From: an uncultured Candidatus Saccharibacteria bacterium
GTDB lineage: Bacteria; Patescibacteriota; Minisyncoccia; Phycocordibacterales; JACOZG01
NCBI GenBank assembly: GCA_964567425.1
Contig: CAZMMP010000003.1
Span: 1-32,059 of the forward strand
Direction of reading: 5' to 3'
Length of the DNA: 32,059 bases
Shown here: piece after piece, positions 6,024 to 32,059 of the stretch
Layout of the letters: each line of letters opens with the position of its first letter
Position numbering within the stretch: the stretch's first letter is position 1
Position numbers and translations under genes: made by a program
Notes under the pieces: model-generated
What the model saw: only the letters and a program-made list of their open reading frames with translations
Database searches by the model: none
What the model was told of the DNA's origin: nothing

Positions 6024-6037
6024 GCTAGGGAACAACG

Positions 6038-10358: not shown

Positions 10359-10394
10359 GCCTAGTTCACTGTATGCGAACTGGGCTTTTTCTTT
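10359..10394 (+). terminator. Rho-independent terminator after the PEP-CTERM gene
   Basis: GCCTAGTTC pairs with GAACTGGGC (9 bp including one G-U), with a 9-nt loop, followed by TTTTTCTTT. Confidence 0.65.
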
Positions 10395-10414
10395 CGTCTC
10401 AATTTGTTTTGTTA

Positions 10415-10420
10415 TACAAT
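10415..10420 (+). promoter_or_regulatory. -10 hexamer TACAAT, 8 nt upstream of ATG 10429
   Basis: Motif and spacing only. There is no clear -35 and no SD. Confidence 0.35.
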
Positions 10421-10428
10421 AAAGAGTA

Positions 10429-16591: not shown

Positions 16592-16777
16592 ATGATCAAC
16601 AAAGAAGCCAAAAATTGGAACAATTTTTTTCTGGGACTGCTCGTCGCTATCATTCCCTTTATTGGTATCCCGCTTAGTGCTAAAAAAATTACCCTTCTCA
16701 TTATTGGTTTACTGATTGCGCTCTTCTCGCTGGCCCGGCTCGACCGATCTAAACGAGGGCATGAATCGGTGGCTTAA
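16592..16777 (+). CDS. small two-helix membrane protein (61 aa)
   Basis: Two hydrophobic helices (FFLGLLVAIIPFIGIPL and LLIIGLLIALFSLA). Confidence 0.45.
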   Translation: MINKEAKNWNNFFLGLLVAIIPFIGIPLSAKKITLLIIGLLIALFSLARLDRSKRGHESVA

Positions 16778-18017
16778 AACCGGCGGCTGGATCGTTGGCG
16801 GTGCCGTGTTAGTGGCGGCGCTCGGGTTTAGTTCCGTTCTCGTTTTCCCCCGGTGGTGGCAAGCGCCCGAGTATTTAGCGGCCACTAGCGAATTGGCCGC
16901 CACCAGCACTCCGAGCGCTACCTCTTCGGTGCCGAGCGTCGAGCATCTTTCCACGCCCGAGCCACTCCGCGCGCTTTATCTCACGCAATGTGCGGCGGCC
17001 AGCCCGGCGCTCCGCGAGCACGTGCTCGGACTGGCCACCACGACGGAGATTAATGCGATTGTGGTGGATCTTAAAGATTACAGCGGCACTGTCATTTTCC
17101 CTTCCGCTACCGCGGTGCCGGGCGGCAAAGGGTGCACCGACAGCCAGTTTCGTGCTCTGGTCAAACGGATGCATGAGGCGGGGATTTATGTGATTGGTCG
17201 CTTAACCGTCTTTCAAGATCCACTCTATACCAAAGTTCACCCCGAGGAGGCCGTCCAGAGCAACAAACGAGCAAACGCAGCGACGGCGCTCGAGCGCGTC
17301 TGGCGCGATCGCAAAGGCCTGGCTTTTGTAGATGTCTCAAGCGAGCCCTTCCATACCTATATTGCTACGCTCGCTAATGAAGCGATTGCGCTCGGCGTCG
17401 ACGAAATTAATTTTGATTATATCCGCTACCCGTCCGATGGTGATATGGAGGACACTCGCTATATTGATACGGGTCGTTCTCATGCTGAAAATCTTGAACG
17501 TTTTTTCCAGTTTTTATCAGACAATGTTCCGGCTGTTCGTTCGGCGGATTTATTCGGCATGACGGCGTCAAATTATGATGATCTGGGGATCGGCCAGGTG
17601 CTCGAGCGAGCAATGCCCTACTTTGATTATGTGGCCCCAATGGTATACCCCTCCCATTATCCGAAAGGTTTTAATGGTTGGTCTGATCCCAATCAACATC
17701 CCTACGATATTATCCACTTTTCCCTGTCACGCGCCGTCGCTCGAGCCAGGGCCACCACGACGCTTATTGCTGCTCTCTCCTACCAGCCGCTTGATCCGGC
17801 GGCTACCACCACGCCGCGGGTGTACCAAAAACCGAGCTTCCTGCCCGGCAAAATCCGCCCCTGGCTTCAAGATTTTAATTACCCCATCACGTACACTCCC
17901 GAGATGGTCGAGGCCCAAATTCAAGCAACCTATGATGTTGGCCTGACGAGCTGGATGCTCTGGGATCCGGCCAACCGCTACACCGCCTCTGTTCTAAAAA
18001 CTTATCCCCGGCCTTGA
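16761..18017 (+). CDS. putative glycoside hydrolase, DUF4015 (GH-like TIM barrel) family, membrane anchored
   Basis: Contains INAIVVDLKDYSG, IYVIGRLTVFQDP and EINFDYIRYPSDG. ATG 16761 gives an N-terminal TM helix (WIVGGAVLVAALGF). The ORF-track start is 16716. Confidence 0.8.
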   Translation: MNRWLKTGGWIVGGAVLVAALGFSSVLVFPRWWQAPEYLAATSELAATSTPSATSSVPSVEHLSTPEPLRALYLTQCAAASPALREHVLGLATTTEINAIVVDLKDYSGTVIFPSATAVPGGKGCTDSQFRALVKRMHEAGIYVIGRLTVFQDPLYTKVHPEEAVQSNKRANAATALERVWRDRKGLAFVDVSSEPFHTYIATLANEAIALGVDEINFDYIRYPSDGDMEDTRYIDTGRSHAENLERFFQFLSDNVPAVRSADLFGMTASNYDDLGIGQVLERAMPYFDYVAPMVYPSHYPKGFNGWSDPNQHPYDIIHFSLSRAVARARATTTLIAALSYQPLDPAATTTPRVYQKPSFLPGKIRPWLQDFNYPITYTPEMVEAQIQATYDVGLTSWMLWDPANRYTASVLKTYPRP

Positions 18018-18038
18018 TCGCTAGCCGAGCAGTAAACC

Positions 18039-18047
18039 TGCTATACT
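18039..18047 (+). promoter_or_regulatory. extended -10 element TGcTATACT, 9 nt upstream of ATG 18057
   Basis: TG at 18039-18040, hexamer TATACT at 18042-18047, spacer tattagtga, then ATG. No SD. Confidence 0.45.
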
Positions 18048-18056
18048 TATTAGTGA

Positions 18057-21000
18057 ATGAAATTTTCCCGCCCTCTGGTGATTGTTCTGCTCGTGCTGGT
18101 GGGTGCCTTACCCGTACTCGGTGCTGTTTTTCCTCCGCTTACTGCTAAATTTACCGGACACGATACTGGTCCGAGCGTAACACAGCTTCAACAAATGCTC
18201 GCGGCGGATGGCGTTTACTCTGCTACCCCGAGCGGTAGTTACGACCAGGTAACCACCGAGGCGGTGGCGCGGTTCCAACAAAAATATAATTTACCCACCA
18301 CCCCCGAAACACTCGGTTTTGCTGGCCCTAGTACCCGCGCTAAATTAAATGCGCTGTATGCCGAAGGTGGCAGTCCTCCTGTTCCGTCCTCAACTTCTGG
18401 TGGGTCGGCTCCCGCTTCAGCTAACACTGAAGCTCTGGTGCAAACCCTGCGATTGCAGCTGCTCTCGCTGTTGCAGCAGCTGCTCGGCTTGCTTCAAAAA
18501 GGCAATCAGCCACTTCCACCGCTTCCCACGGCTAGTTCAACGGTTCAAGTTAGTCCAACCGTGACGCCAAGTGGTAGTACCTCGGCCGTAGTTACTTCCA
18601 GTCTTCATCAGATTACTGCCTCGACCGGCGCTGGCGGCCGCGTCACTCCTCTTGGTCAAATCAAGGTCGAAGATGGCAAAGACAAAACCTTTACCATTAC
18701 AGCCGATGCAGGCTTTACCATTGATCGGGTAACGATTGATGGTCAGGCGATTGCTTCGGCCGAGCTTGGTGCCGGCGGGGCGAGTTATACCTTTAAAAAG
18801 GTTAAAACTGACCATACTATTAATGTAACGTTTAAAACGACTACGACCGCCGCCCCCGCTGACACCGTTACCTTGACCACTACGGCGCAAGACGGACAGA
18901 TTACCCGCTCTTCGACTCAATCCGCGTATCCGACTAACACCACGATTACGTTAACAGCTGTCCCAAATGCCGGCTTTCAGTTTGTGGGTTGGTCCGGCGA
19001 TGCGAGCGGTACCAGCAATCCCTTGAGCGTGGTGCTTAACAAAAATAAATCAATCACGGCTAATTTTTCGCCGCTTTCGTACGCTATTGTAGCGAGCGCC
19101 GGCAGCGGCGGGGCGATTAGTCCGGCGGGGAGTACGCCGGTGCAAGCGGGAGCAAATCAGACCTTCACCATCACGACCACTACAGGTTATAGTATCGCGA
19201 GCGTTTTAATTGATGGACAAGCCGTAGCGATCGCTTCGACGTACACGTTCCAAGATGTTCGCGCTAATCACGCGATTGCAGTTACTTTTTCAACGACCAC
19301 CACGACACCCGTCGAATCGCCTTCAGTAACGTATCCGACCGGCACGATCTTGCCCGCGGGGAGCGGTTTTAGCGGCGCAACCGCGCAGCCGGCGACGCGC
19401 GGCTCCTCCTCCCAAACCGGCTATGACGCTAAAGCGATTGCTCGCTGGGACGTGATTCCGTATCAAACCTTTGATACCACCTTTAATGTTGGTGTCGTCG
19501 CCTTCCACATTGCTGATATTGATCGCGTCGAGTTTTCCGCCAATGGGGGAGCGTGGACGGCGATTGATCGGATGACCACCAACCCCCAGTCGGGAGTGAA
19601 AGAGTATTGGGCTACGGTCCGAGCAAGCGATTTCCCTGACGGGCAGATTGAATTACGCGCGGTGGTGTATCCTAAGGTTGGTATACCGCGCGTCCTAGCC
19701 GGCGCGATTACCTCGGCATCCAGCGCGCTCGGCGAGCATTCCATCTTTCTGTTTGCTAACGCCAACCACAGCTTTGTCTCCCAAGCGGTCTATGTCGGCT
19801 TGAGTGGTGCCGATACGAATCCCGGCACGGCTGTAGCGCCGTTTGCCACGATTAAAAAAGCGCTTAGCGTCGTTAAAGACGGCGGCACCATTATTTTGCT
19901 TGATGCCGGTTCTTACGCGGTCGACGGGCCCAGCACCTATGTGCGGCCTACGCGCTGGATTACGATCAAGCCCCGTGATGGCTTGACGCGCGATCAAGTG
20001 GTAATTGCCCAACCCACGCGAACGGGCATTCGGCCCTTTGTTAACCTGCTTAAATGGCAAGGCTTAGCTTTCGACTTTCATACTGTGGCCCAATATTATG
20101 GCGAGGCTGGTTCCTTGCTCTGGTTTGATAACGTGCATTGGTATGACTCGGGCGGCTGGACCTCAATTTACACTGGCAACACCGGACGGGTTAGCGCCTA
20201 CGTTGCGGCGACCTACGTTACCGATTCGCTGGCGGAAGAAATGGAGTATGGATTTACCAGCACGTCGCTCTTGCGCAACTCCCACATGTACCGCATTTCA
20301 GGCGACGCTTTCCAAAACTCGCGCCTCATTCTTAACTCGGATGTTGATACAATGGCCACGGTGATTTGTTGGACGAACGCCTCGGGCGCTAAAGAATGCA
20401 CCCATAATGATATCTTGCAGTATTGGAGTAGTGCTACCAACAACATTATTATTTATGGCGTCGAAGCGACGAATATTAAGGAAACGCAAGGAGTCTTTAT
20501 TACCGGCGAACCGCTGCAAGACGTTGCGGTCGTTAATGTGGATTTGGATACTAACGATCCCGGCGGCGGCCCTGCCTTTTCGCAAATGGGAGGTACTAAT
20601 AAGCACTATCTCTTGATTAATCTCCAGTTGCCGAAGCAGAAATTTATCATTCGCAACGATGCGTTATTGTCCACGACGAACGTGCTCTTTAAAGATTGTA
20701 CTTTGTATGAAGCGCTGGGGACGCTCCCGCCCAATGTCACGGTTAAAAATTGCGTGGACCGAACCGGGAAGTCGATTGATGGGATTGGTTTGCCGCCGGA
20801 CACGATTGCTCCCACCGCGCCGACTAATCTAGCGGTAACTTCTACCAATGCGAATGCGGTGGCCTTAAGCTGGTCGGCTGCCACCGATAACGTTGCCGTA
20901 ACTAATTACAAAGTCTATCGCGATGGTACGGCTGTGGCCACGGTCAATAAAACGACGTACACCAATACTGGTCTCACGCCGCTCACTACCTATCGGTACA

Positions 21001-21884
21001 CTGTAGCGGCCGTTGATAAGGCGGGTAATGTATCTCCGCTTTCGGGTGAGGTGAGTGCGACCACGTTGGACGCCGCCTCGGGCACAACGGCTCCTTCGGT
21101 GAGCGATCACGATGCCTCGTTAGGCTTGTTGGGACGCTGGTCGTTTGATTCAGGCTCCGTGGCGGGGACCACGGCGCAAGACGACTCTGGTAACGGGAAT
21201 GATGCCGAACTTGCCCAAATCCCCACCTTGCCCTCAGGTAAAATTGGCCAAGCCCTCCAGCTTGATGGCAGTACCCAGTGGGCGGAGGCGCCGGCCAGCG
21301 GTTCGCTCAATGTTTCTTCATCGGTTACGGTAGCTGGTTGGGTTAATGCCGCTAACACGACTGGAGGGGTGATCTTGGCCCGAGGCTGCACCTATTCCGG
21401 CGCTTCAGCGGAAGATTACGCTCTCTTCTTATATTCCGGGAATCGCCTCAAAATGGATATCAGCGACGGCTCGAGCGTCTCTTCGGTACTCTCTCCCACC
21501 AGCCAGGCGGCCGGTACCTGGTATCACGTGGCCGGCGTGTATGACGGCAGTAGCGTGACACTCTATCTTAATGGAGTGCAAAGCGGGACTACGGCGACGA
21601 CGCTTACTCACCTCAACTCAACGACGGGTAAAAAAATCGGCATTGGCCGCGACCTGACCTGCAGCCGCGCCACTCTAACGGGTTTGCTTGATGATGTGCG
21701 GGTCTACAATACCGCTCTGTCGGCAAGCGAGCTCCAGGCGCTGTACGCCCAGGCGCGAAGTGCCCACGTTGATCCACTGGCCCAGATCAAGCCAGCCAAT
21801 AATCTGGCGGCCAGCTATTCAGCCTTTGAAATATTCTGGCTTTGGCTCAAGCAGCTCCTAGTTGGTCTGGGTCAACGATTATAG
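18057..21884 (+). CDS. large surface protein: PG-binding domain, Leu/Gln zipper, three InlB-B-repeat/Ig-like modules, right-handed beta-helix (pectate-lyase-like), FN3, LamG
   Basis: Signal peptide. PG_binding_1 (GPSVTQLQQMLAADGVY...GPSTRAKLNALY). Modules of the type FTITADAGFTIDRVTIDG...HTINVTF and AVPNAGFQFVGWSGDASG. Beta-helix entry motif APFATIKKALSVVKDGGTIILLDAGSY. FN3 (VALSWSAATDNVAVTNYKVYRDG). Laminin_G_3 (LLGRWSFD...WYHVAGVYDGSSVTLYLNG...LDDVRVYNTALS). Hydrophobic C-terminal tail. Confidence 0.9.
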   Translation: MKFSRPLVIVLLVLVGALPVLGAVFPPLTAKFTGHDTGPSVTQLQQMLAADGVYSATPSGSYDQVTTEAVARFQQKYNLPTTPETLGFAGPSTRAKLNALYAEGGSPPVPSSTSGGSAPASANTEALVQTLRLQLLSLLQQLLGLLQKGNQPLPPLPTASSTVQVSPTVTPSGSTSAVVTSSLHQITASTGAGGRVTPLGQIKVEDGKDKTFTITADAGFTIDRVTIDGQAIASAELGAGGASYTFKKVKTDHTINVTFKTTTTAAPADTVTLTTTAQDGQITRSSTQSAYPTNTTITLTAVPNAGFQFVGWSGDASGTSNPLSVVLNKNKSITANFSPLSYAIVASAGSGGAISPAGSTPVQAGANQTFTITTTTGYSIASVLIDGQAVAIASTYTFQDVRANHAIAVTFSTTTTTPVESPSVTYPTGTILPAGSGFSGATAQPATRGSSSQTGYDAKAIARWDVIPYQTFDTTFNVGVVAFHIADIDRVEFSANGGAWTAIDRMTTNPQSGVKEYWATVRASDFPDGQIELRAVVYPKVGIPRVLAGAITSASSALGEHSIFLFANANHSFVSQAVYVGLSGADTNPGTAVAPFATIKKALSVVKDGGTIILLDAGSYAVDGPSTYVRPTRWITIKPRDGLTRDQVVIAQPTRTGIRPFVNLLKWQGLAFDFHTVAQYYGEAGSLLWFDNVHWYDSGGWTSIYTGNTGRVSAYVAATYVTDSLAEEMEYGFTSTSLLRNSHMYRISGDAFQNSRLILNSDVDTMATVICWTNASGAKECTHNDILQYWSSATNNIIIYGVEATNIKETQGVFITGEPLQDVAVVNVDLDTNDPGGGPAFSQMGGTNKHYLLINLQLPKQKFIIRNDALLSTTNVLFKDCTLYEALGTLPPNVTVKNCVDRTGKSIDGIGLPPDTIAPTAPTNLAVTSTNANAVALSWSAATDNVAVTNYKVYRDGTAVATVNKTTYTNTGLTPLTTYRYTVAAVDKAGNVSPLSGEVSATTLDAASGTTAPSVSDHDASLGLLGRWSFDSGSVAGTTAQDDSGNGNDAELAQIPTLPSGKIGQALQLDGSTQWAEAPASGSLNVSSSVTVAGWVNAANTTGGVILARGCTYSGASAEDYALFLYSGNRLKMDISDGSSVSSVLSPTSQAAGTWYHVAGVYDGSSVTLYLNGVQSGTTATTLTHLNSTTGKKIGIGRDLTCSRATLTGLLDDVRVYNTALSASELQALYAQARSAHVDPLAQIKPANNLAASYSAFEIFWLWLKQLLVGLGQRL

Positions 21885-21903
21885 TAGACTTAGTAAAAAC
21901 GGG

Positions 21904-24774
21904 ATGAAACGGACTACCGCGATTGGACTCGGAGTGATGATAGGGGTTTTGGCGCTCGCTACTGCGGCTTGGGCCGGAGTGGTGTGCACCTTCACTGGCA
22001 GTGCAGGCACTGATCTCTCCAGCTACTCGCAATCCGGCGAACCTACCTGGACGGAGCACGCTAACTATACTTCGGGCGCGATAATTTTAGATAATGCCAA
22101 TCGCGCTCGCCCCAATTCTGGCAATATCAGCGTTTATTATTCTAGCGATGTGCCCGCCTCGGCTGATTATTCGGTGGAGGCGGATCTGGTGTGGGTTACT
22201 AACGTCGGCTCATATTATGGTTTGATCGCCCGCGCGAGTACCACCGCCTCCACTTTTTACCAAGCGCTGTATTATCAAAATGAATGGCGGATTTACCGCG
22301 TCATCTCTGGCACAGCGACGCTCTTGGGGGCATACCCGGAGGTGGTGACGAGCGGCACACATCACCTGCTCTTCACGGCTCGGGGGATCAATTTAACTTT
22401 GGCGGTTGATGGCACCGAGCGAGTGCATGTGCTGGATTCAAATATTACTACCGCCGGGTTTGGCGGGCTCACCAGTTGGGGTGCCGCTCTCTCGGACTCT
22501 ACCGGCATTCATTTTGATAATTTTCAAGAGACTGATCTCGCCACTGCCGGAGTGGGAACGAATATCACCATCACCAGTCCCGAGGCGTATCAGATCATTC
22601 AGCGCGGCAGTAATAATACGGCGAGTATTCCCATCACTGGTACTTACACCGGATCGCCCACGGCGATTGAAGCGCGCTGGAATAATGGCGCTTGGACCAC
22701 AATCGTAGCGAGTCCTGCGGGCGGTACCTTTAGCGGCACCTTAACCGGCCAAACTGCCGGACAGGGCACGCTTGAGGTGCGGCACGCCAACAATACGGCT
22801 AACAACGCTTCGGTGAGCAATGTCGGCGTCGGCGAGGTTTTTGTGGTGGCGGGCCAATCAAATGCCGAGGGGCAGGGGACGTATATGCAGCAGTGGATAA
22901 ACAACGGTTTTGTGCCCGGGTTATTTGGCAATGACAATCATTGGCGCTTGCTCGCCGATCCCTTTGATAGCTCGTACAACCAAGTGGATTCGGTGAGCAA
23001 TGACACGACCTTGCCAGCGGGAAGCGTTTGGCCTTTGGTGGGCAGTTATCTCATGGCCACCACCAGCGTGCCGGTGGCCTTCGTGCCCACTCCTAAGGGC
23101 GCCACGGCCATTTCCGCGTGGCAGCCGAGCGCTAATCATCTTGACCGCTCGACGCTCTATGGTTCGATGAACTATCGCGCCAGTTTGTTAAGCGCGGGAG
23201 CGCGCATGGTGGTGTGGTGGCAGGGCGAGACCGACGCCACGGCAGGCACTACCCAAAGTGCTTACAATAGCGCGCTCGATACGCTGGCCAATGCCATCAA
23301 TAGCGATCGTGGCCTCAAGCTCATGGCCGTCCGACTCCAAAATTCGAGCGGCCTCACCGACGCTAATGAGGACGCGATTCGAGCGGCGGTGGTTGAGGCG
23401 GCCAATGATAATGCGAATGTTTTACTAGGCCCCGATCTCTCTGATTTAAATACGGACGACACCCTCCACCTGAAATCAAATGCTAATTTAGCGACTGCGG
23501 GCGGGCGCTGGGCCGCCTCCATCTTGCCGTACTTGCCGCCTGTCGCACCCTCGGGTCTCACGGCGAGCACTACCTCGGCCACGGCGGTTGCCTTGCAATG
23601 GACCGATAACTCCGCCTACGAGACGGGTTTTACAATTGATTACAGCAGCTCAAGTGCTTTTACGAGCTTTGCCACCACGACTGCCGCGGCCAACGCCACC
23701 AGCACAACCGTTACTGGCCTATCACCGGCCACGACGTATTATTTCCGAGTAAAAGGGACTAATACCGCTGGCGCTTCTTTTAATTCCGCTTCCACCAGCG
23801 CCGTGACTAGTGTTGCACCCGACAACACACCCCCCACGCCGGGCTCCATTACTTTCTCTAGCGTTACCACGACCAGCATCACCGCTTCTTCCACAGGGGC
23901 GACAGATGCCGGTGGTTTAGCGGCCACTCCCTTTATTTATCATGCTACGAGCACCGGCTTTGGCAGCTTTAGCGCCGCGACCAGCACGGCCGTAACGTTT
24001 ACCGGCTTAACGCCTAACCGCACCTATTACTTTGAAGTCGGCGTGCAAGATGCGGCGGGCAATTGGGCGACCAGCACGGTGTATGGCACCAGTACGCTGG
24101 CACTAACCCACACGATTACGGCCACGGCCGGTCTCCATGGGAGCATTAGTCCATCGGGCTCGGTGGTGGTAAACGATGGTGACTCGCAAGCGTTTACGAT
24201 CACTCCCGACGGTGGTTATAGTCTAAGCGGACTTACGGTTGACTCGAGTCCGGTCACGACCGCTTCGAGCTATACCTTTTCTTCAGTCGTAGCTGACCAT
24301 ACGATTGCGGCTACGTTTACTGTCATTCCTGATTCAACTTCGACAACCACTTCGTCCACAAGAACCTCTTCGTCGGGCGGCGGCGGAGGCAGCCGCCCGA
24401 AACCGGCGGTGATTCCGAGCGCGGCTCTCCCAGCGCCAGTCCCTCTCCCTTCGGGTCTGACTCATATCTTCCCTCCGTTACTTACTCCGCTTGCTCTCGG
24501 CCAACAAAGCCCGAGCGTTACTCAATTGCAGCAAATGTTAACAGAGATGGGTATTTATCACGGTCCGATTACTGGTTATTATGGCGTTTTAACTAAAGCC
24601 GCCGTGGGAGTCTTCCAAGGTCAGGCGGGGATTATTACGACCGCCGAAACTAAAGGGCTGGCCGGACCCCAAACCCGGGCCGCTTTAAATCGCTGGTATT
24701 TAGGGGCGTTACAACAGCAGCTCCAGACCCTTCAACTGCAGTTGACGACGCTCTTGGCGAGCCCGCCTAAGTAA
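21904..24774 (+). CDS. large surface protein: jelly-roll lectin-like domain, SASA/DUF303-type carbohydrate O-acetylesterase, two FN3, InlB-B-repeat-like module, PG-binding domain
   Basis: ATG 21904 gives the signal peptide MKRTTAIGLGVMIGVLALATAAWA (the ORF track opens at TTG 21862). The SASA catalytic motif VFVVAGQSNAEGQG has GQSN at 22851-22862. FN3 domains span about 23536-24100. C-terminal PG_binding_1 (SPSVTQLQQMLTEMGIY...GPQTRAALNRWY) is followed by QQQLQTLQLQLTTLL. Confidence 0.9.
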   Translation: MKRTTAIGLGVMIGVLALATAAWAGVVCTFTGSAGTDLSSYSQSGEPTWTEHANYTSGAIILDNANRARPNSGNISVYYSSDVPASADYSVEADLVWVTNVGSYYGLIARASTTASTFYQALYYQNEWRIYRVISGTATLLGAYPEVVTSGTHHLLFTARGINLTLAVDGTERVHVLDSNITTAGFGGLTSWGAALSDSTGIHFDNFQETDLATAGVGTNITITSPEAYQIIQRGSNNTASIPITGTYTGSPTAIEARWNNGAWTTIVASPAGGTFSGTLTGQTAGQGTLEVRHANNTANNASVSNVGVGEVFVVAGQSNAEGQGTYMQQWINNGFVPGLFGNDNHWRLLADPFDSSYNQVDSVSNDTTLPAGSVWPLVGSYLMATTSVPVAFVPTPKGATAISAWQPSANHLDRSTLYGSMNYRASLLSAGARMVVWWQGETDATAGTTQSAYNSALDTLANAINSDRGLKLMAVRLQNSSGLTDANEDAIRAAVVEAANDNANVLLGPDLSDLNTDDTLHLKSNANLATAGGRWAASILPYLPPVAPSGLTASTTSATAVALQWTDNSAYETGFTIDYSSSSAFTSFATTTAAANATSTTVTGLSPATTYYFRVKGTNTAGASFNSASTSAVTSVAPDNTPPTPGSITFSSVTTTSITASSTGATDAGGLAATPFIYHATSTGFGSFSAATSTAVTFTGLTPNRTYYFEVGVQDAAGNWATSTVYGTSTLALTHTITATAGLHGSISPSGSVVVNDGDSQAFTITPDGGYSLSGLTVDSSPVTTASSYTFSSVVADHTIAATFTVIPDSTSTTTSSTRTSSSGGGGGSRPKPAVIPSAALPAPVPLPSGLTHIFPPLLTPLALGQQSPSVTQLQQMLTEMGIYHGPITGYYGVLTKAAVGVFQGQAGIITTAETKGLAGPQTRAALNRWYLGALQQQLQTLQLQLTTLLASPPK

Positions 24775-24803
24775 GCTCTGCCTTGTCCGTCTTTATTAGC
24801 CGA

Positions 24804-24812
24804 TGATATAAT
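24804..24812 (+). promoter_or_regulatory. consensus extended -10 element TGaTATAAT, 7 nt upstream of ATG 24820
   Basis: TG at 24804-24805, hexamer TATAAT at 24807-24812, spacer ttacggt, then ATG. No SD. Confidence 0.55.
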
Positions 24813-24819
24813 TTACGGT

Positions 24820-26721
24820 ATGAAAAAAGAATTATTGAGAGACTTAATTGTCCTGCCGGTTGCATTGCTGATAATTGTTGTGTTGTGCGCCAGTCGCGGT
24901 AAAGCTGACTCTTCGATCCCCACCGCTAATCTGGTGCTTGATCTCCAGGCCGGGGTGGGAGTAGTTAAAGATAGCTCCAATCAAATTCTTTCCATCGCCG
25001 ATCAGAGCGGGGCGGGCAATAACGTCACCGGAGCGACGGATAATAGCAGCAAGCCGATTGATACGGTTGACGCTGATGGTAAACCGGTGATCCGTTTTGC
25101 CTGGGCTTTTTCTTCTAACCACCCTAAGGGCTACTTAGTGCTCCCGAGCACGCTCACGGGTATTAATCCTCGTAATACTTCCGTGTATGTTGTGGCGGCT
25201 CCACGGACGGTTGACTATCAGTCTTCAATTGTATCTTTCTCCGGGCCGTATAACTTTATGAGCCTTAACTCGATCGGCTCCACGCCGCCGGTGCTCTGGC
25301 TGACCACTCTGGCGAGCAACCCCAAGTTGTATGTTCCTAATAACAAAGCGGTGCTTGCCACTGTCGGCCGTTCTAACGGGGGAGTGGTACGATGGAATGA
25401 CACGCAACGAACGACCACGGCTCCTGGCGTAGGCAATCTCACGGGTGGAGCGATTGGTCGTCACGGCGATAACGCGTCGCAACATTTCTCCGGCGATGTG
25501 TATCGCGTTTTGATTTACAATACCGCTCACGATGACGCTACTATTGCGGCGATCACTGCCCAATTGGAGGCGCAGTATGGCGTGGTTACGACGTATACCA
25601 AGCAGGTCGTGATTGAAGGCGATAGTTTGACGGCCGGTGCCTACAGCACCAACTTGCAAGACTGGCCCAATCAGCTGCGGATGGCGCACCCTGACTGGCT
25701 GGTATGGAACGAGGCGTTGTCAGGAGCGCAAATTGGGGTGGCCACCACCAGTGGTACCATGGCCGCCGAGGCGCCCGTGCAAGTAGATCAACTCTACAAT
25801 CCTTCGCTTTCTCGCAATGTTTTAGCGCTCTTGGGAGGGACTAATGATATCGGAGTAGGAGGTCAAAGCGGTTCGCAGACTTTCACGCGGCTTGTTAATT
25901 ATCTCACGGCGCGCAAGGCCTTAGGCTACGAAACTTGGGTGATTACCGTCCCGGATCGCGGCAGTTTTGACACGCAAGTGCATGATTACAACGCGCTCAT
26001 CCGTTCGGGTAACCCCATGATTGATAAGGTTATTGATGTGGGTAAAGATTCTCCGACGGAAACTCGGCTCTCCAATTCAGCCAACAGCACCTATTATTAT
26101 GTTGACCAGCTCCACTTGGTTAATGCGGGTTACGGCGTAATTGCTGAATTGGTTGGCCAAGCGCTCGGTGGAGTCGTCACGCCTCCTCCGCCGCCAACCG
26201 ATACCACGGCCCCAACCATTAGCGCCATTAGTTCGGGGACGCCGGGCCAAAGCACAGCCACGATTACCTGGACTACTGATGAACCGGCGGACACGCAAGT
26301 GGAGTATGGCCTAACCACCAGCTACGGTTCCAGCTCAACATTGGCTAGTGCATTAGGGGCGAACCACAGCGTGACGCTCAGTGGCCTCAGTGCCGGGACA
26401 AGCTATCACTTTAGGGTTAAATCGCGCGACGCGGCAGGTAACTTAGCTATCTCGGCTGATCAGAGTTTTATGACGGCCGCTGCTAATACTCCGCCGCCTC
26501 CTTCCGCCGCGACTCGGGGAACCTGTGTCTTAAGCGTTGGTAATTGTACGGTAGCCACCACCGCCATTGGTGTTAATTCTTTAGTGCTGCTCACGGCGCA
26601 GGACACTGATTCGGCGGGCACTCTCTACGTGGCCAGCCGGACGCCCGGCACCTCCTTTGTGGTAATGTCTCACGATGTTGGCGATCATGGCGTAGTGGCG
26701 TGGGAAATTCTTGAGCCCTAA
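24820..26721 (+). CDS. surface protein: LamG-like domain, SGNH/GDSL hydrolase, FN3, small Cys-containing C-terminal domain
   Basis: N-terminal TM/signal segment. LamG-type end FSGDVYRVLIYNTAHD. SGNH blocks are GDSLTAG (from 25618), GGTNDIG and DQLHLVNAGY. FN3 (ATITWTTDEPADTQVEYG...SYHFRVKSRDAAGN). Confidence 0.9.
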   Translation: MKKELLRDLIVLPVALLIIVVLCASRGKADSSIPTANLVLDLQAGVGVVKDSSNQILSIADQSGAGNNVTGATDNSSKPIDTVDADGKPVIRFAWAFSSNHPKGYLVLPSTLTGINPRNTSVYVVAAPRTVDYQSSIVSFSGPYNFMSLNSIGSTPPVLWLTTLASNPKLYVPNNKAVLATVGRSNGGVVRWNDTQRTTTAPGVGNLTGGAIGRHGDNASQHFSGDVYRVLIYNTAHDDATIAAITAQLEAQYGVVTTYTKQVVIEGDSLTAGAYSTNLQDWPNQLRMAHPDWLVWNEALSGAQIGVATTSGTMAAEAPVQVDQLYNPSLSRNVLALLGGTNDIGVGGQSGSQTFTRLVNYLTARKALGYETWVITVPDRGSFDTQVHDYNALIRSGNPMIDKVIDVGKDSPTETRLSNSANSTYYYVDQLHLVNAGYGVIAELVGQALGGVVTPPPPPTDTTAPTISAISSGTPGQSTATITWTTDEPADTQVEYGLTTSYGSSSTLASALGANHSVTLSGLSAGTSYHFRVKSRDAAGNLAISADQSFMTAAANTPPPPSAATRGTCVLSVGNCTVATTAIGVNSLVLLTAQDTDSAGTLYVASRTPGTSFVVMSHDVGDHGVVAWEILEP

Positions 26722-26779
26722 AGGATAACCGGCTCAACTATTTATCCACTGTTTGTGTCTCTGGTTTGAGCTGGAGTGG

Positions 26780-26788
26780 TGGTACAAT
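26780..26788 (+). promoter_or_regulatory. extended -10 element TGgTACAAT, 10 nt upstream of ATG 26799
   Basis: Same 9-mer as at 4543-4551, then spacer tataagtacg, then ATG. No SD. Confidence 0.45.
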
Positions 26789-26798
26789 TATAAGTACG

Positions 26799-29700
26799 AT
26801 GAAGCATTGGGTCGTTGGAATCGGGTGGACGGTAGGCGCCCTCTTTCTCCTGTGGGGAGCAACCGTTCCCTTGCAGGCAGACGCTGCTGTTTGTACTTCT
26901 CAAGGTACGGGTAACTGGAATACTAGTGGCACCTGGGATTGCGGCCATGTCCCGACCTCGAGTGACTCCGTAGTGGTTGCTAATACGCATACAGTAACCG
27001 TGGACGTTAATACGGCCACGGTTACTGCTATTACCATCAATAGCGGCGGCACCTTAACCGAAGACGGCAACGGCCGGACCATCACTGAATCGGGCGGCTG
27101 GACCAATAACGGTACCTTTACGGCCAATCAAAGTACGGTTAAGTTTGCGGGCAACCAAACCTTTACCGGCAGCACCACCTTTAAGAACCTTACTATTGAT
27201 ACCAACTCAAACTCCGGGCTTTCGGTGACCATGACCGGCTACACCGCTACCACGACTGGGACGTTTACTTTCAATAACTCCTTAAGTGGTGCTATGCGTT
27301 TGATCGGAGGTACGGTGGCCGCGCAGGGGAATATTGTCTGGGACGCAGCTGATTCTCCGACTAACATGACGGGCACCTTGCTGGTCAGTGGTTCGGGAAG
27401 CCAGACCCTCACTACCAGCAATGCCACGCGCACGACCGGTAACTTGATGCCCTTGGTGGTAAATAAAACCGGCACGCTTACTCTCTCTGGAGATGTCCGA
27501 TCGGAATATGATTGGACGCTCACCGCCGGTTCGATTGATGCTACTACCAATACGACTACGGTAGTGTTGGGGAGCACTGGCAATCTCACTGTTACCGGTT
27601 CTCAAACTTTTTATAACTTAACGCTTGACCCTAACTCAACCGGGACTCGGGGTTATACTATCGCTAGTGGTTCGACTCTTACGGTTAGTCACAATTTTAT
27701 TCTCCAAAGCAGTTCAGTGGGGGCAGGAATAACAGGTATCGCCACTGGCAATCTGGTTTTGCAAGGCGACATTACCTGGGATAATGATGACACTAATGGA
27801 GGCACTCAATCAGCCGTCGTCACAATCTCCGGCTCTAATAGTCAGGCGCTAACGTTTGTCGGAGGGAATGTAACTACCGGCCGCTTTGCTTCGACAACGA
27901 TTAATAAAACCGGAGGCACGTTAACGGTTTCGGGTATTGCCCGGATGAATTCTCACTTCGCTCACCTGGCGGGTACGGTCGACTGGACTACTGGTAGCAG
28001 TACCTTGGTTTTTTCAGCGAGCACCGCGATTACTGTTAATCCGGCGGCCAGTACCACCTACAATAATGTCCGATTCGATCAAAATAGCGCTTCCTCGCAA
28101 GTGGTGACGATGCCCTCCGGCACCACCATGAAAATAGCGGGCACTTTAACGATTGATAATACTTCCAGCGGCGCGATTCGGATGGATGGTGGTACGCTCG
28201 AAGCGCAGGGAGATATCGCAGTGGATACCGCTAATCTTTTTAGTACTTTTACGGAGAATTTGTTAATTGATGGTTCGGCAACGCAAGCTCTAACAGTCAC
28301 GGGCGGTTCGACCACTGCCGGCAATTTTGCTTCCACTACCATTAATAAAACCGGCGGTACTTTGACCGTCTCCGGCACGCTCCGGACGACGCGAAACTTT
28401 ACCGTTACTGCCGGCACTGTTGACTGGACAACCAACAGCACCACCCTTTCCTTAGCGGGGACTCTTAACTTTAATCCGGCGGCGGGTAATACCTATAGCA
28501 ACGTATATGTTGATACCACTGGTGCGGTTACCCTTCAAAATAATTTAGCGCTCGCGGGTAATTGGACGAATAATGGTAGCTTTACTTCTGGCTCCAATAC
28601 GGTGACTTTCACTGGCACGGGCACTAGCACGGTGATTACGGGAGGGACGAGCGCCACCAAAGATTTTCAAACCTTTACTGTTAACAAATCAGGGAGCGGG
28701 ACCGTCGTCCTCTCCGCTAACGGTCTAGATGTTGACGGCACTCTCACTGTTTCAGGCGGCACGCTTGATCTAAATGGGCAAAGTGTCACGACCACCACGA
28801 CTTGTTCGGTCACCGGAACTCTAAAATTGACAGCCGGCGAGTCAGTCTCATGTACCCCCACCTTCAATGCCGGTTCTACCGCCGAATATTACGCAACAAC
28901 CACTGTTTCCCGAGCGATTAATAATTGGACTTACAAAAATCTTAAGTTTTCCGGAGTTTCGGGCGGCACTTTTACTGATGGTACCTCCCGCACAGTCGCG
29001 GAGACTCTCGTCGTAACTGCCGGGACGTTCCAGCCTACCGCCACTCTCGCAGTTACTGCCACGACCACGGTCTCCGGAGGAAGCTTGTCAGCTGGTTCCG
29101 CCACCCTTGATCTAAATTCCGATGTTGTAATTTCGGGCGGAGTCTTTACCGCTCCTTCTGGTACAGCAACGGTAGCGGGTAACTGGACTAACTCTAGTGG
29201 AACGTTTACTCACAATTCGGGCACTGTTACGTTTGATGGAACCAATCAAATTATTAGTGGCAACAACTCCTGGAATAACTTAACCAAGTCGGTGACAACT
29301 GCCCGCTCGTTGACGTTTGATCACACGGCCACTCAAACCGTTGCCGGTCTCTTAACATTGAGTGGCACGTTAGGCAATCTTCTTACTCTCCAATCTGATA
29401 CTGCTGGGCAGTATTGGGGGTTAACCGCCAATGGCACCTTTGCTATTACGTACGTTACCGTGTCAGATTCGAATGCCTCTGGAGGGAGTCAAGTCACCCA
29501 AACCAATAGTACTGACGGCGGGCACAATCTTAACTGGACTTTCAACCAAACTCCCACCGTCTCCTCGCTCGGCCCTACCCAGTACGTCAACGGCAGCTAC
29601 ACCACCGACAATACTCCGACGCTCGCGTTTACCACCGCGGATGGCGATGGCGACACGCTGGCATACCAGCTCCAGATCGACAACAACTCTAACTTTGGCT

Positions 29701-32059
29701 CGCCCGAAGTGGACACCACCTCGAGCTATCATTTCGGCACGACGGAAAGTTACACTCCCTCCACGCTCTCCGACGGTTCCTACTACTGGCGGGTGAGAGT
29801 GGGCGATGGTACCGCCACCTCCAGTTACAGCACTGCTAATGCCGGAGCTGTGGCGTTTATTGTCGACACCGCTGTTCCTACCGCGGGTAGCATTACCTTT
29901 ACTAGCCTAGCGGCGACTAGTCTTACAGCAAGCTCTACCGGTGCCAGCGACGCGGGGGGTTTGGCCGCAGCACCGTTCCTTTACTACAATCAGACTCGGG
30001 GCACTTACTCGGGTGCGACCAGTACCGCCTGGACCGAAACCGGTCTTACACCAAACACGAGCTATACCTACGTGGTAGGGGTGACCGATGGCGCTGGCAA
30101 CTCGGCTACCAGCACTACCTATAGCACTACCACGCTGGCTAATATTCCCTCCAGCGCTAGCGCTACTCCCAATTCGCGCACTGCTATTACGGTGAGCTGG
30201 GGTGCCAACTCCAACCCGGGCAGTACCGAGTATTTTGTCACCGATACCGACACTAGCCAGACTTCTGGCTGGCAGACCGCCACCAGCTGGCAAGAGACTG
30301 GACTTTCGGCGGGGACCACCTACCATTACACCGTCAAGGCGCGCAACTCTGCCGGAGCGATGACCGCCACGGCGAGCTCTTCCGGTACCACTCCCGCCAA
30401 CTCCACCCCCACCGTCTCCTCGCTCGGCCCTACCCAGTACGTCAACGGCAGCTACACCACCGACAATACTCCGACGCTCGCGTTTACCACCGCGGATGGC
30501 GATGGCGACACGCTGGCATACCAGCTCCAGATCGACAACAACTCTAACTTTGGCTCGCCCGAAGTGGACACCACCTCGAGCTATCATTTCGGCACGACGG
30601 AAAGTTACACTCCCTCCACGCTCTCCGACGGTTCCTACTACTGGCGGGTGAGAGTGGGCGATGGTACCGCCACCTCCAGTTACAGCACTGCTAATGCCGG
30701 AGCTGTGGCGTTTATTGTCGATGCGACTGACCCTTCGGTCTCGCTCACGGCACCGACGAACGGGAGCTATGCTAGCGGTACGGTGGCGCTTGCTGCCACG
30801 GCGAGCGATACCATCTCTTTAGTTGGCGTTCAGTTTGTGCGTGATACGAACACTCTGATTGGCAGCGAGGATACTTCCAGCCCATTTACCGGCAGTTGGG
30901 ATACCACCGCGGTTGCTGATGGGTCTCATACGCTTCAGGCGGTGGCGCGAGATGCTGCCGGTCATTATGCTACTTCCAGTATTACCGTCACCGTCGACAA
31001 CACCGCCCCCACTCTTTCGGGTGAATCGCCGACTGGTACTCAACCGGCCGGCACCACCCAAGTCTCATTAGCAGTTACCACCAACGAGGCGGCTACTTGT
31101 AAGTACGCGACCTCATCTGGCGTTGCCTATGCTTCAATGACGGCCTTTGGCACCACTGGTAGTACCAGTCATAGTCAAACAATTACCGGTCTTTCTAATG
31201 CGCAGAGCTATAACTACTATGTAAAATGTCGCGATGGAGCCGGCAACACGAGCATTGAAGATCATATTGCCTTTGATGTAGCAGAAGGGGGAGCGCCTGC
31301 AGTTTCCTTAACTGCGCCGACGAATGGTACCACGGTGACCGGTGCAAGCGTGACGCTCTCGGCTACGGCGAGCGATGATGGGACAGTGATGGGTGTCCAA
31401 TTTAAGCGTGATGGCACAACAAATATTGGTGCCGAAGATACAAACGCGCCCTATAGCGTCAGCTGGGATTCGACGGGAGTAAGTGATGGTTCCCATACGC
31501 TCCAGGCGGTGGCGCGAGATAATGATGGCAAGTATGCCACTTCGACGATTACCGTCACGGTTGATAATACGGCCCCGATCATTTCCTCGATTGCCACGAG
31601 CTCGGTGACTGGCACCAGCATTGTCATTAGTTGGAATACGAACGAAGCGGCCACCTCGCAAGTAGAATATGGTCTTACAGCTAGTTATGGTTCGGCTTCC
31701 ACTCTCGACTCTTCATTGGTCTCGAGCCATACTGTAACCTTAAGCGGCCTGACTCCGTACACGGCCTATCATTATCGGGTTGCTTCTACTGATGGCGTGG
31801 GTAATCATGCCAGCTCGAGTGACCAAACCTTTACCACACTCGACAGCACAGCACCCACACCCGGTTCCATCATCTTTAGCGGAGTAAGCACTACTGGCAT
31901 TACGGCCAGCTCAACCGGCGCGAGCGATGCCCAATCAGGACTCGCTCCTGCTCCGTTCAATTACCACAACATCACTCGCGATACTTCCTCGGGAGCTACT
32001 GCGACAAACTGGAGCGAAACCGGTCTAACGCCAAATACGAGTTACAGTTATGAAGTCGG
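26799..32059 (+). CDS. giant secreted beta-helical adhesin-like protein (5-prime partial view, more than 1753 codons, runs off the window)
   Basis: Not in the supplied ORF track because it has no stop in the window. I translated the frame codon by codon from ATG 26799 to 32057 and found no stop. Signal peptide is MKHWVVGIGWTVGALFLLWGATVPLQADA. A T/G/N/S-rich parallel beta-helix-like region extends to about 29550, followed by FN3 and Ig-like modules. Confidence 0.9.
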   Translation, partial: MKHWVVGIGWTVGALFLLWGATVPLQADAAVCTSQGTGNWNTSGTWDCGHVPTSSDSVVVANTHTVTVDVNTATVTAITINSGGTLTEDGNGRTITESGGWTNNGTFTANQSTVKFAGNQTFTGSTTFKNLTIDTNSNSGLSVTMTGYTATTTGTFTFNNSLSGAMRLIGGTVAAQGNIVWDAADSPTNMTGTLLVSGSGSQTLTTSNATRTTGNLMPLVVNKTGTLTLSGDVRSEYDWTLTAGSIDATTNTTTVVLGSTGNLTVTGSQTFYNLTLDPNSTGTRGYTIASGSTLTVSHNFILQSSSVGAGITGIATGNLVLQGDITWDNDDTNGGTQSAVVTISGSNSQALTFVGGNVTTGRFASTTINKTGGTLTVSGIARMNSHFAHLAGTVDWTTGSSTLVFSASTAITVNPAASTTYNNVRFDQNSASSQVVTMPSGTTMKIAGTLTIDNTSSGAIRMDGGTLEAQGDIAVDTANLFSTFTENLLIDGSATQALTVTGGSTTAGNFASTTINKTGGTLTVSGTLRTTRNFTVTAGTVDWTTNSTTLSLAGTLNFNPAAGNTYSNVYVDTTGAVTLQNNLALAGNWTNNGSFTSGSNTVTFTGTGTSTVITGGTSATKDFQTFTVNKSGSGTVVLSANGLDVDGTLTVSGGTLDLNGQSVTTTTTCSVTGTLKLTAGESVSCTPTFNAGSTAEYYATTTVSRAINNWTYKNLKFSGVSGGTFTDGTSRTVAETLVVTAGTFQPTATLAVTATTTVSGGSLSAGSATLDLNSDVVISGGVFTAPSGTATVAGNWTNSSGTFTHNSGTVTFDGTNQIISGNNSWNNLTKSVTTARSLTFDHTATQTVAGLLTLSGTLGNLLTLQSDTAGQYWGLTANGTFAITYVTVSDSNASGGSQVTQTNSTDGGHNLNWTFNQTPTVSSLGPTQYVNGSYTTDNTPTLAFTTADGDGDTLAYQLQIDNNSNFGSPEVDTTSSYHFGTTESYTPSTLSDGSYYWRVRVGDGTATSSYSTANAGAVAFIVDTAVPTAGSITFTSLAATSLTASSTGASDAGGLAAAPFLYYNQTRGTYSGATSTAWTETGLTPNTSYTYVVGVTDGAGNSATSTTYSTTTLANIPSSASATPNSRTAITVSWGANSNPGSTEYFVTDTDTSQTSGWQTATSWQETGLSAGTTYHYTVKARNSAGAMTATASSSGTTPANSTPTVSSLGPTQYVNGSYTTDNTPTLAFTTADGDGDTLAYQLQIDNNSNFGSPEVDTTSSYHFGTTESYTPSTLSDGSYYWRVRVGDGTATSSYSTANAGAVAFIVDATDPSVSLTAPTNGSYASGTVALAATASDTISLVGVQFVRDTNTLIGSEDTSSPFTGSWDTTAVADGSHTLQAVARDAAGHYATSSITVTVDNTAPTLSGESPTGTQPAGTTQVSLAVTTNEAATCKYATSSGVAYASMTAFGTTGSTSHSQTITGLSNAQSYNYYVKCRDGAGNTSIEDHIAFDVAEGGAPAVSLTAPTNGTTVTGASVTLSATASDDGTVMGVQFKRDGTTNIGAEDTNAPYSVSWDSTGVSDGSHTLQAVARDNDGKYATSTITVTVDNTAPIISSIATSSVTGTSIVISWNTNEAATSQVEYGLTASYGSASTLDSSLVSSHTVTLSGLTPYTAYHYRVASTDGVGNHASSSDQTFTTLDSTAPTPGSIIFSGVSTTGITASSTGASDAQSGLAPAPFNYHNITRDTSSGATATNWSETGLTPNTSYSYEV
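29553..29866 (+). repeat. perfect 314-bp direct repeat, copy 1 (encodes a ~105-aa YYWRVR-type Ig/FN3-like module)
   Basis: By eye it is nucleotide-for-nucleotide identical to 30408-30721. As corroboration, the antisense ORFs 29463..29732 and 29907..30587 share an identical first 60 aa. Confidence 0.9.
30408..30721 (+). repeat. perfect 314-bp direct repeat, copy 2
   Basis: The offset from copy 1 is 855 nt (285 codons), so both copies are in the same reading frame. Confidence 0.9.

Follow-up and report, generated by a model that had tools for sequence, protein, structure and literature searches.

What do the very long, apparently exported proteins encoded beside a cell-wall gene block of a tiny, uncultured and probably symbiotic bacterium of the Patescibacteria (candidate phyla radiation, CPR) do, and do they act together at the cell surface? 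We addressed this question for the last 15 kb of a 32,059-nt stretch of contig CAZMMP010000003.1 (hereafter the window). The original prediction had recognised here five consecutive genes on the same strand, g1 to g5, and had read them as a coordinated surface toolkit that is wall-anchored, active on glycans and in part adhesin-like. The five plus-strand open reading frames (ORFs) are confirmed: g1 (16761-18017; 418 amino acids (aa) from its ATG), g2 (18057-21884; 1275 aa), g3 (21904-24774; 956 aa from its ATG, within a 970-aa ORF that begins with TTG at 21862), g4 (24820-26721; 633 aa) and g5 (26799 to beyond 32059; open at the end of the window, more than 1753 aa). Our analysis separates g1 from the other four genes, and the best explanation we can offer, to which we assign a probability of roughly 0.55, is that g2-g5 are a lineage-specific island whose products, exported mosaic enzymes that are in part tethered to the wall and a protein resembling adhesins, would act on an O-acetylated surface polysaccharide.

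Most of the domain calls on which the original prediction was built are upheld by Pfam, with scores above the curated cut-offs for DUF4015 in g1, for the peptidoglycan-binding domain PG_binding_1, fn3 and Laminin_G_3 in g2, for SASA, fn3 and PG_binding_1 in g3, and for Lipase_GDSL_2 (an SGNH esterase) and fn3 in g4. Each of the five proteins has a single hydrophobic segment, at the N terminus, of the kind seen in Sec signal peptides or signal anchors, and on this basis g2-g5 are predicted to be exported. The window is chromosomal DNA of a Patescibacterium of the Paceibacteria/Parcubacteria type, because the neighbouring genes are housekeeping and cell-wall genes and the homologues of g1 carry the names Kaiserbacteria, Paceibacterota and Parcubacteria.

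The genes g2-g5 are inserted after a conserved cell-wall gene block

The product of g1 matches DUF4015 (PF13200) over the full length of the model (positions 1-313 of 313), with 257.1 bits against a cut-off of 27, and is predicted to be a membrane-anchored TIM-barrel protein and putative glycoside hydrolase. The sole relative of solved structure is the uncharacterised protein 4s1a, and one paper names DUF4015, solely as a domain fused to YkyA domains. Homologues of g1 are plentiful in Patescibacteria (7732 matches, the closest 60-66% identical), and we compared the gene neighbourhoods of 80 species-representative relatives. In 39 of these, murC lies upstream of the DUF4015 gene on the same strand and at a distance of no more than 4 kb; the close relatives share the order murD, a protein of about 300 aa (X), murC, an ORF of about 70 aa, and DUF4015. 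A hydrophobic, two-helix ORF of 61 aa lies between murC and g1 in the window (16592-16777, plus strand). It is 75% identical to a 70-aa ORF at the same position in one of these relatives (L001), and it overlaps the ATG of g1 by 17 nt, an overlap found in identical form at the DUF4015 start of a relative. We place the start of g1 at this ATG because the overlap is conserved, and the conserved small ORF ties g1 to the mur block. The small ORF itself has the look of a small membrane protein, conserved and so far unannotated, that belongs to this mur-DUF4015 block.

What directly follows the DUF4015 gene in the relatives is, in 72 of the 80, a TrwB/VirD4-like coupling-protein ATPase of about 540-700 aa, which lies within 3 kb in 70 of the 80 (loci L001-L003 and L007-L086), and in 44 relatives the ATPase is itself followed by glycosyltransferases of the GT4 family, often as a run. 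No gene for a TrwB-like ATPase was found within the 14 kb after g1 in the window, where g2-g5 stand instead. Homologues of g2-g5 occur within 10 kb of DUF4015 in none of the 80 relatives, barring isolated matches to generic modules (FN3/Ig in L008 and a PG-binding segment in L080). In 58 of the 80 loci the sequence extends 5 kb or more beyond DUF4015 on the downstream side. As the ATPase gene follows DUF4015 in the relatives while g2-g5 occupy this place in the window, we conclude that g2-g5 are an insertion of at least 14 kb in an otherwise conserved gene order. The gene g1 is the last member of the conserved block (murD, X, murC, small ORF, DUF4015) and lies outside this island. Other samples hold fragments of g1 and g3 at 97-99% identity. 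A chimeric assembly was considered as the origin of the junction and rejected, since the tetranucleotide usage of the island is nearest to that of its own upstream region and of close relatives. The coordinated toolkit of five genes does not survive this comparison, with g1 in a block of its own and g2-g5 near DUF4015 in none of the relatives.

The pairing of DUF4015 with the TrwB-like ATPase is strikingly conserved in Patescibacteria.

The g3 and g4 proteins carry esterase domains with intact catalytic motifs

The g3 protein is a mosaic of binding, spacer and catalytic modules, the limits of which are given here in the numbering of the 970-aa TTG ORF. A signal peptide (15-39) is followed by a CBM66-like, concanavalin-type lectin domain (approximately 41-235), an Ig-like domain (approximately 236-320), a SASA domain (325-550), two FN3 domains (562-745), a B-repeat (approximately 752-822), PG_binding_1 (883-942) and a Leu/Gln-rich helix. 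The SASA-type (CE6-like) O-acetylesterase domain, encoded on the plus strand at 22834-23511, scores 76.8 bits against a cut-off of 24.8 for PF03629, and PG_binding_1 scores 41.7 bits. The GQSN motif with the Ser nucleophile, the WWQGETD motif and the DDTLH motif are all intact. Across 38 family members the residues G291, Q292, S293, N294, G415, E416 and H496 are invariant, and D418 and D493 are conserved in at least 90%. In these respects g3 resembles the SASA/CE6 acetylesterases, such as At4g34215 of Arabidopsis (PDB 2apj), with which it shares GQSN, QGExD and DxxH and whose GQSNM and WYQGESD motifs align to its own; it differs from them in the setting of the domain, a 956-aa mosaic that also bears an Ig-like domain and a CBM66-like lectin and is putatively tethered to the wall.

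The N-terminal domain of g3 has no match in Pfam. A profile of 12 homologues of this domain, taken from proteins with the full architecture, matches the CBM66 of Bacillus subtilis levanase (4azz, 4b1l, 4b1m) with an E-value of 5.5e-7, which supports the lectin that had been proposed at this position. A kinship with the LamG domain of g2 was examined and discarded, as BLASTP detected no similarity and hhalign returned a probability of only 12%. The family defined by the Ig-like and SASA domains together is large (4823 representatives, 643 of them at E<=1e-30). Among 38 relatives of the esterase module, 10 carry LamG_3, seven PG_binding_1 and seven fn3, and Big_7 or LysM also occurs; the mosaic architecture of the g3 type is thus recurrent.

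In g4 a signal or anchor peptide (1-29) precedes a weakly LamG-like domain (30-262), an SGNH esterase domain (267-438), FN3 (470-552) and K1-lyase_C (564-631). The esterase domain scores 43.1 bits against a cut-off of 32.9 for Lipase_GDSL_2 (PF13472). Its catalytic residues are invariant in an alignment of eight sequences: G267 and S269 of GDS, N297 of block II, N342 and D343 of GxND, and D429 and H432 of DxxH; the Gly three residues after N297 is present in g4 and is not invariant. A loss of catalytic residues, which the original prediction had named as an outcome that would refute it, is therefore not what we find, and both esterases look active because their catalytic motifs are intact. The assignment of the N-terminal domain of g4 is weaker. 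It matches the LamG domain of g2 with an hhalign probability of 42% (E 2.7e-4), one of the six members of its family matches Laminin_G_3 (8e-4), and g4 itself has no Pfam match in this region. A PDB profile search with the N-terminal domain returned nothing meaningful, and a PDB sequence search with the SGNH domain returned no relative.

The esterase core of g4 has its closest relatives in phage tail modules and on viral contigs

Two features of g4 connect it to phage tail proteins. Its C-terminal K1-lyase_C domain (PF24146), which had been missed before, scores 59.1 bits against a cut-off of 27 (E 6e-16); Pfam named this family after the Klebsiella K1 capsule lyase. Ralstonia podophage proteins with the annotation polysaccharide deacetylase have C-termini that are 44-47% identical to these 68 aa, which also match a minor tail protein of a Streptomyces phage. 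The N-terminal domain and SGNH core together are rare, with only seven homologues detectable among 5.8 billion clustered proteins. The nearest (P0242, 45% identical) lacks a signal peptide and lies in a phage tail module, where genes for a protein of 719 aa and a beta-helix protein of 481 aa precede it at the end of a run of small genes without Pfam matches, one of which encodes a protein that matches tape-measure PHROGs. The second-nearest homologue is close to a Mu-type portal gene, and a scan of IMG/VR with three sequences found distant relatives with the same two-domain core on viral contigs.

In g4 a glycan-binding module is followed by an enzyme and then by a C-terminal module, a layout like that of the depolymerases and deacetylases of phage tailspikes and fibres, among them the Klebsiella K1 capsule lyase and tail proteins with an SGNH esterase. 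It differs from these in its signal or anchor peptide and FN3 spacer, in having no N-terminal virion-attachment domain, and in its chromosomal setting without phage structural genes nearby. The gene looks like that of a phage receptor-binding enzyme to which a signal peptide and an FN3 spacer have been added; the reverse history would explain the similarity equally well.

The nearest homologue of g4 is carried on three phage-like contigs (L087, positions 1-11407, L088 and L089) with a GC content of 57-58%. Their shared gene order is a 340-aa tape-measure-like protein, proteins of 262, 72 and 719 aa, the 481-aa beta-helix protein, a 441-aa LamG-like/SGNH esterase, and proteins of 123 and 1168 aa. 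The 481-aa beta-helix protein (L087) was compared with the helix of g2 by tblastn and no kinship was detectable; the likeness of the g2 helix to phage pectin-lyase-fold proteins is generic only.

The g2 protein contains a PL9/GH120-like beta-helix with conserved polar residues

The g2 protein begins with a signal peptide (1-23), PG_binding_1 (37-97; 47.3 bits), a Leu/Gln-rich helix and InlB-type B-repeats (approximately 183-413; Flg_new_2), which had been overlooked both here and in g3. Its C-terminal half comprises an Ig-like sandwich and a right-handed beta-helix (430-915), FN3 (921-999) and Laminin_G_3 (1070-1226; 98.4 bits against a cut-off of 27.6). The catalytic candidate is the Ig-like domain with its parallel beta-helix, encoded on the plus strand at 19344-20801, which we studied by AlphaFold2 modelling, Foldseek searches and family alignment. 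The AlphaFold2 model of residues 430-915, built on a 43-sequence alignment, has a mean predicted local distance difference test (pLDDT) score of 93.2; in it an Ig-like sandwich leads into a right-handed parallel beta-helix. Its best Foldseek matches are 5olq and 5olr (polysaccharide lyase family 9, PL9), 3vst (glycoside hydrolase family 120, GH120), 1ru4 (Pel9A), 5mqp and PL6 structures, at probabilities of 0.9-1.0, reaching 0.99-1.0 for 5olq, 5olr and 1ru4, and template modelling (TM) scores of 0.24-0.34. The fold neighbours therefore comprise PL9 rhamnogalacturonan and pectate lyases, the GH120 enzyme XylC, the rhamnogalacturonan II (RG-II) enzyme BT_1002 and PL6 alginate lyases, all at low TM scores, and the beta-helix that had been proposed for g2 is confirmed by the model. 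The protein has in common with the PL9 lyases (Pel9A, 1ru4; BT4170, 5olq) and with XylC (3vst), its best matches by sequence profile as well as by fold, the right-handed parallel beta-helix and a DUF1565-type N-terminal cap; unlike them it carries an additional Ig-like domain at the N terminus, and it is only 10-14% identical to them.

The helix belongs to a family of 299 homologues, the best of which are 42-45% identical, from Phycisphaerae, Planctomycetes and Patescibacteria-like genomes; elsewhere its members carry dockerin, CBM6/35 or PA14 domains. In the family alignment H354, D356 and N367 are invariant and R311, D321, Q359 and Q382 nearly so (fragment numbering). In the full-length protein H354, D356, N367, D321 and R311 are H784, D786, N797, D751 and R741. 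The conserved polar residues lie on consecutive turns, within the motifs RISGDAFQN and THNDILQ…NNIIIYG, and this pattern of His, Asp and Asn with Arg, Asp and Gln suggests an active-site groove on the helix.

Two homologues are informative for their surroundings. One (P0001) adjoins an exopolysaccharide cluster with Wzy, flippase and glycosyltransferase genes in an unrelated genome. The other (P0016), from a Patescibacteria-like genome, combines Big_7, a helix of the g2 type, FN3 and PG_binding_1, and is a singleton inside a ribosomal-protein operon, beside toxin-antitoxin genes.

In a Patescibacteria-like genome (L004 and L005, positions 10001-12553 and 19197-22427) the ribosomal-protein operon (S10 … L4, L23, L2) is interrupted by a gene for a Big_7/beta-helix/FN3/PG_binding_1 protein, HicA and MazE/PemK genes, and a gene for a further protein (1076 aa) with PG_binding_1; in the sister contig the latter is divided between a beta-helix protein of 459 aa and another protein of 797 aa. 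In the window, the Leu/Gln-rich helical segments that follow PG_binding_1 in g2 (18420-18510) and g3 (24690-24771), both on the plus strand, read …LRLQLLSLLQQLLGLLQKG and …LGALQQQLQTLQLQLTTLL, respectively, and PG_binding_1 with this helix may form a composite tether or oligomerization module.

The g5 protein is long and rich in repeats

The visible part of g5 consists of a signal peptide, a G8 domain (45-119; 28.7 bits against a cut-off of 22.9), Thr/Ser/Gly-rich repeats with a period of 147 aa (approximately 120-900), and then Ig_Rha78A_N/Big_13-like modules, FN3 and Big_7 in one array. Big_7 (two copies), fn3, Big_13 and Ig_Rha78A_N are all detected, of which the Big_7, Big_13 and Ig arrays had escaped the original prediction. 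Thr makes up 20% and Ser 12.5% of the protein, and the N-terminal 900 aa have no match among PDB sequences. A segment of 300 nt is present twice on the plus strand (29543-29842 and 30398-30697), with 99% identity between copies 855 nt apart, so that one and the same module of about 100 aa, Ig_Rha78A_N/Big_13-like, is encoded twice; the pair is either a recent intragenic duplication or a possible point at which the assembly collapsed or expanded.

The island is a mosaic and not a conserved operon

The modules of the island recur from gene to gene. The FN3 domains of g4 and g5 are 45% identical, the FN3 pairs of g3 and g5 41%, and the PG-binding domains of g2 and g3 37%, and there are also modules in common between g2-g5 and P0016. 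A -10-like hexamer lies 11-16 nt before the ATG of each of g2, g4 and g5, and the best promoter-like match of the region is a strong -10/-35-like site before g4 (24783-24812); a single operon is therefore not required. When we looked for the set of genes in relatives, as the original prediction had recommended, the genes proved to be scattered, an outcome that it had counted as refuting. Modules of the g2 or g4 type occur in none of the 80 metagenome loci that hold the nearest g3-type esterases, just as they are missing from the 80 DUF4015 loci, and P0016 stands alone in its genome. Taken together, these observations point to mosaic genes built by module shuffling.

The notion of a surface toolkit acting on glycans fares better than that of a coordinated one: the N-terminal signals, the lectin modules, the helix and the intact esterase motifs all stand, while coordination and conservation do not. 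Wall anchoring likewise holds in part, as PG_binding_1 is present in g2 and g3, and no such domain is found in g1, in g4 or in the visible 1753 aa of g5.

A model for the action of the island proteins

We propose that the proteins of g2-g5 would be exported by the Sec pathway, and that those of g2 and g3 would be held non-covalently on peptidoglycan by PG_binding_1 and the Leu/Gln-rich helix, with InlB B-repeats, FN3, Big_7 and Ig domains serving as stalks. The lectin modules (LamG_3 in g2, CBM66-like in g3, LamG-like in g4) would dock on an O-acetylated polysaccharide, from which the SASA esterase of g3 and the SGNH esterase of g4 would strip the acetyl groups; the exposed backbone could then be cleaved by the beta-helix enzyme of g2, and g5 would act as a long, fibrous, adhesin-like protein. 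Because the esterase core and C-terminal domain of g4 are of the phage tail spike or fibre type, the likeliest substrate is a polysaccharide of a cell surface, be it capsule, exopolysaccharide or wall glycan, which could belong to a host or partner cell, to the organism itself or to the environment. Gene structure, domains, catalytic motifs, the fold of the g2 helix, the island itself, the want of conserved co-occurrence and the phage kinship of g4 are observed; export, anchoring, substrate, joint action of g2-g5 and any part in episymbiosis are what we infer. A bolder version of this model, which we consider unlikely, is that an episymbiotic Patescibacterium displays modules of the phage-tailspike type on its own wall, namely a LamG-like/SGNH deacetylase ending in K1-lyase_C, a SASA esterase and a beta-helix depolymerase, and employs them like a phage to recognise, de-acetylate and cut the capsule or wall glycan of its host and so gain the host surface, drawing on a pool of modules exchanged between CPR cells and their phages.

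The original prediction knew of no named system with this composition, and that remains true, yet proteins of this kind are known among the mosaic surface proteins of CPR bacteria, where FN3, concanavalin-like lectin domains and adhesin repeats have been described for Absconditicoccaceae and for CPR from groundwater. Very large exported proteins with FN3 and concanavalin-like domains count as a hallmark of CPR surfaces and have been proposed as host-recognition factors (PMC13059738). CPR genomes typically encode surface proteins of the lectin type, and CPR phages reportedly carry genes for concanavalin-like lectins (bioRxiv 10.1101/2025.02.25.640227); peptidoglycan-binding proteins and carbohydrate esterases were noted in the genome of a Parcubacteria epibiont (bioRxiv 10.1101/2022.04.20.488981). 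The island proteins share with these mosaic proteins their large size, the signal peptide or transmembrane segment, FN3 and the concanavalin-type lectin domains. They differ in that three of the four add enzyme modules whose active-site residues are intact or conserved, and in that two have PG_binding_1 in place of SLH or other anchors. The wall-tethered enzymes of Gram-positive bacteria, with PG_binding_1, LysM or SLH as non-covalent anchors, offer another parallel, as they too combine a signal peptide, a PG-binding module, spacers and a catalytic domain. In the island, however, the catalytic domains are glycan esterases and a beta-helix and not peptidoglycan hydrolases, and the envelope of the Patescibacterium is poorly known.

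To the known class of CPR proteins the island adds a specific combination of enzyme modules and, for g4, a clear link to phages. To our knowledge, the means by which CPR bacteria recognise and attach to partner cells are largely unknown beyond type IV pili. The island offers candidates for glycan processing that could be expressed, namely two motif-intact esterases, a well-modelled beta-helix with conserved His, Asp and Asn, and three lectin-type modules, and the kinship between the g4 esterase and phage tails suggests that cells and phages share modules that target surface glycans. Its significance is limited in that this is one strain-specific island, of a class already noted in CPR bacteria, and not a conserved gene set.

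Alternative explanations

Several observations weigh against our explanation. No relative carries g2-g5 together, and the case for cooperation consists of adjacency and plausible complementary chemistry. We call the helix of g2 PL9/GH120-like in fold and not a member of PL9, because the Pfam model Pel9A-like_beta_helix scores 18.2 bits, below its cut-off of 25.2, and because the family alignment, with its conserved His, Asp, Asn, Gln and Arg, contains no invariant or near-invariant Lys. That Pfam match covers the N-terminal cap only, and PDB profile matches of the helix are likewise confined to the cap (DUF1565-type). The helix family has no characterised member, and may comprise lyases, hydrolases or proteins that merely bind. 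PG_binding_1 is present in just two of the four island proteins, where it could bind the wall of a host and not that of the organism itself, and the signal peptides of g1-g5 were judged by hydrophobicity alone. The AlphaFold2 model of g4 (eight-sequence alignment, pLDDT 52) is unusable. Both the g5 gene and the island are cut by the end of the window, and the adhesin-like character of g5, read from its G8 domain and 147-aa repeats, is unverified, its beta-helix fold being putative.

A nutritional role is a competing explanation that we regard as rather unlikely. The proteins would then be a small wall-tethered degradative apparatus, a cluster of carbohydrate-active enzymes that feeds the cell by de-acetylating and depolymerising polysaccharide from plants, algae or microbes in the environment, such as acetylated exopolysaccharide or pectin/rhamnogalacturonan-like material. 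The fold neighbours of the g2 helix (PL9, GH120 xylosidase, BT_1002 and PL6) would suit such a diet, as would the frequency of this helix family in proteins of Phycisphaerae and Planctomycetes with dockerin, CBM6/35 or PA14 domains and the relation of the g3 lectin to a levanase CBM66; in the breakdown of acetylated glycans, SASA (CE6-like) and SGNH esterases are well-established accessory enzymes. A feeding apparatus sits poorly, however, with the 32-kb window, which lacks any sugar transporter, regulator or catabolic gene, with the absence of conserved linkage to uptake genes in relatives, and with the nearest relatives of the g4 esterase core, which lie in phage tail modules and not in degradative loci. 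The same phage tail relatives argue against a purely domestic task, in which the enzymes would remove O-acetyl groups from the organism's own peptidoglycan or secondary wall polymer and trim it. We find such self-envelope remodelling quite unlikely even though the island adjoins murD, murC, DUF4015 and MltG/YceG, g2 and g3 bear PG_binding_1, the same position leads into a surface-glycan glycosyltransferase cluster in relatives, and some SGNH enzymes are O-acetyl-peptidoglycan esterases. None of the 80 relatives with the mur-DUF4015 block has the island, which is thus not a core wall function, and Pfam detects no muramidase, amidase or transglycosylase domain in the island.

The phage kinship of g4 raises the question of whether g2-g5 are themselves tail-fibre or tailspike (receptor-binding) genes, left over from or carried by a prophage or phage-tail-like particle. 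The position of the nearest homologue after a beta-helix gene in a tail module with a tape-measure-like protein, the second homologue near a Mu-type portal, the relatives on IMG/VR viral contigs, the occurrence of K1-lyase_C at the C-termini of phage tail proteins and the resemblance of beta-helix folds to tailspikes would all fit. We rejected this as the leading explanation and hold it to be highly improbable: a PHROG search of g1-g5 matched only shared modules (FN3, LamG, PG-binding and C-terminal), and genes for capsid, portal, terminase, tape measure and integrase are all absent from the 32-kb window. Moreover, all four proteins have an N-terminal signal or anchor that the phage homologue P0242 lacks, two bear PG_binding_1, and no relationship is detectable between the g2 helix and the one in the phage module. 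There may also be no joint function to explain, if four unrelated surface-protein genes were gathered at a permissive insertion site by duplication and shuffling of modules, so that two esterases, one glycanase and one adhesin each act alone on different targets. The want of conserved co-occurrence in both sets of 80 loci, the separate promoter-like elements, the sharing of modules between g4 and g5 and between g2 and g3, and the solitary mosaic protein of another Patescibacteria-like genome all favour such an accidental assembly, which we nevertheless judge very unlikely, as two acetylesterases, a glycan-cleaving fold and three lectin-type modules fit a pathway of de-acetylation followed by cleavage, circumstantial as this argument is. 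Action on an O-acetylated surface polysaccharide by a lineage-specific island is thus the explanation that we prefer.

Other features of the window

The genes of the window lie almost all on the plus strand. The 16 kb upstream of g1 encode a D-Ala-D-Ala carboxypeptidase, tRNA-Ala, YchF, an NYN protein, a Big_5/PG_binding_1 protein, leucyl-tRNA synthetase, a sigma-70 region 4/HARE-HTH protein, YceG/MltG, an RNase T-type exonuclease, MurD, a 301-aa protein and MurC. The Big_5/PG_binding_1 protein (4593-5453, plus strand; 286 aa) is a further exported protein, which combines the Ig-like domain Big_5 with PG_binding_1 at its C terminus. Its gene lies upstream of the island at a distance of 12 kb, so that in this genome the wall tether also serves outside the island.

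The 301-aa protein (14406-15311, plus strand) lies between murD and murC, where most bacteria have ftsW and murG. It belongs to no Pfam family and gives only faint MG2/CBM48-like matches; relatives have a protein of 302 or 306 aa in the same place, and identity to the L001 copy is 46%. The ORF of the RNase T-type exonuclease (12367-13062, plus strand), taken from its first ATG, overlaps the YceG/MltG gene (11682-12560) by about 190 nt, and its true start is probably farther downstream.

A TAnnnT hexamer starts 11-16 nt before the start codon of 10 of the 19 plus-strand genes (for example those at 18057, 24820, 26799, 3298, 5490, 10429 and 14406), compared with a background of 8-12% (binomial p of about 4e-7 to 2e-5, for a position window picked after seeing the data). 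This placement suggests that transcripts in this genome are leaderless or have very short leaders.

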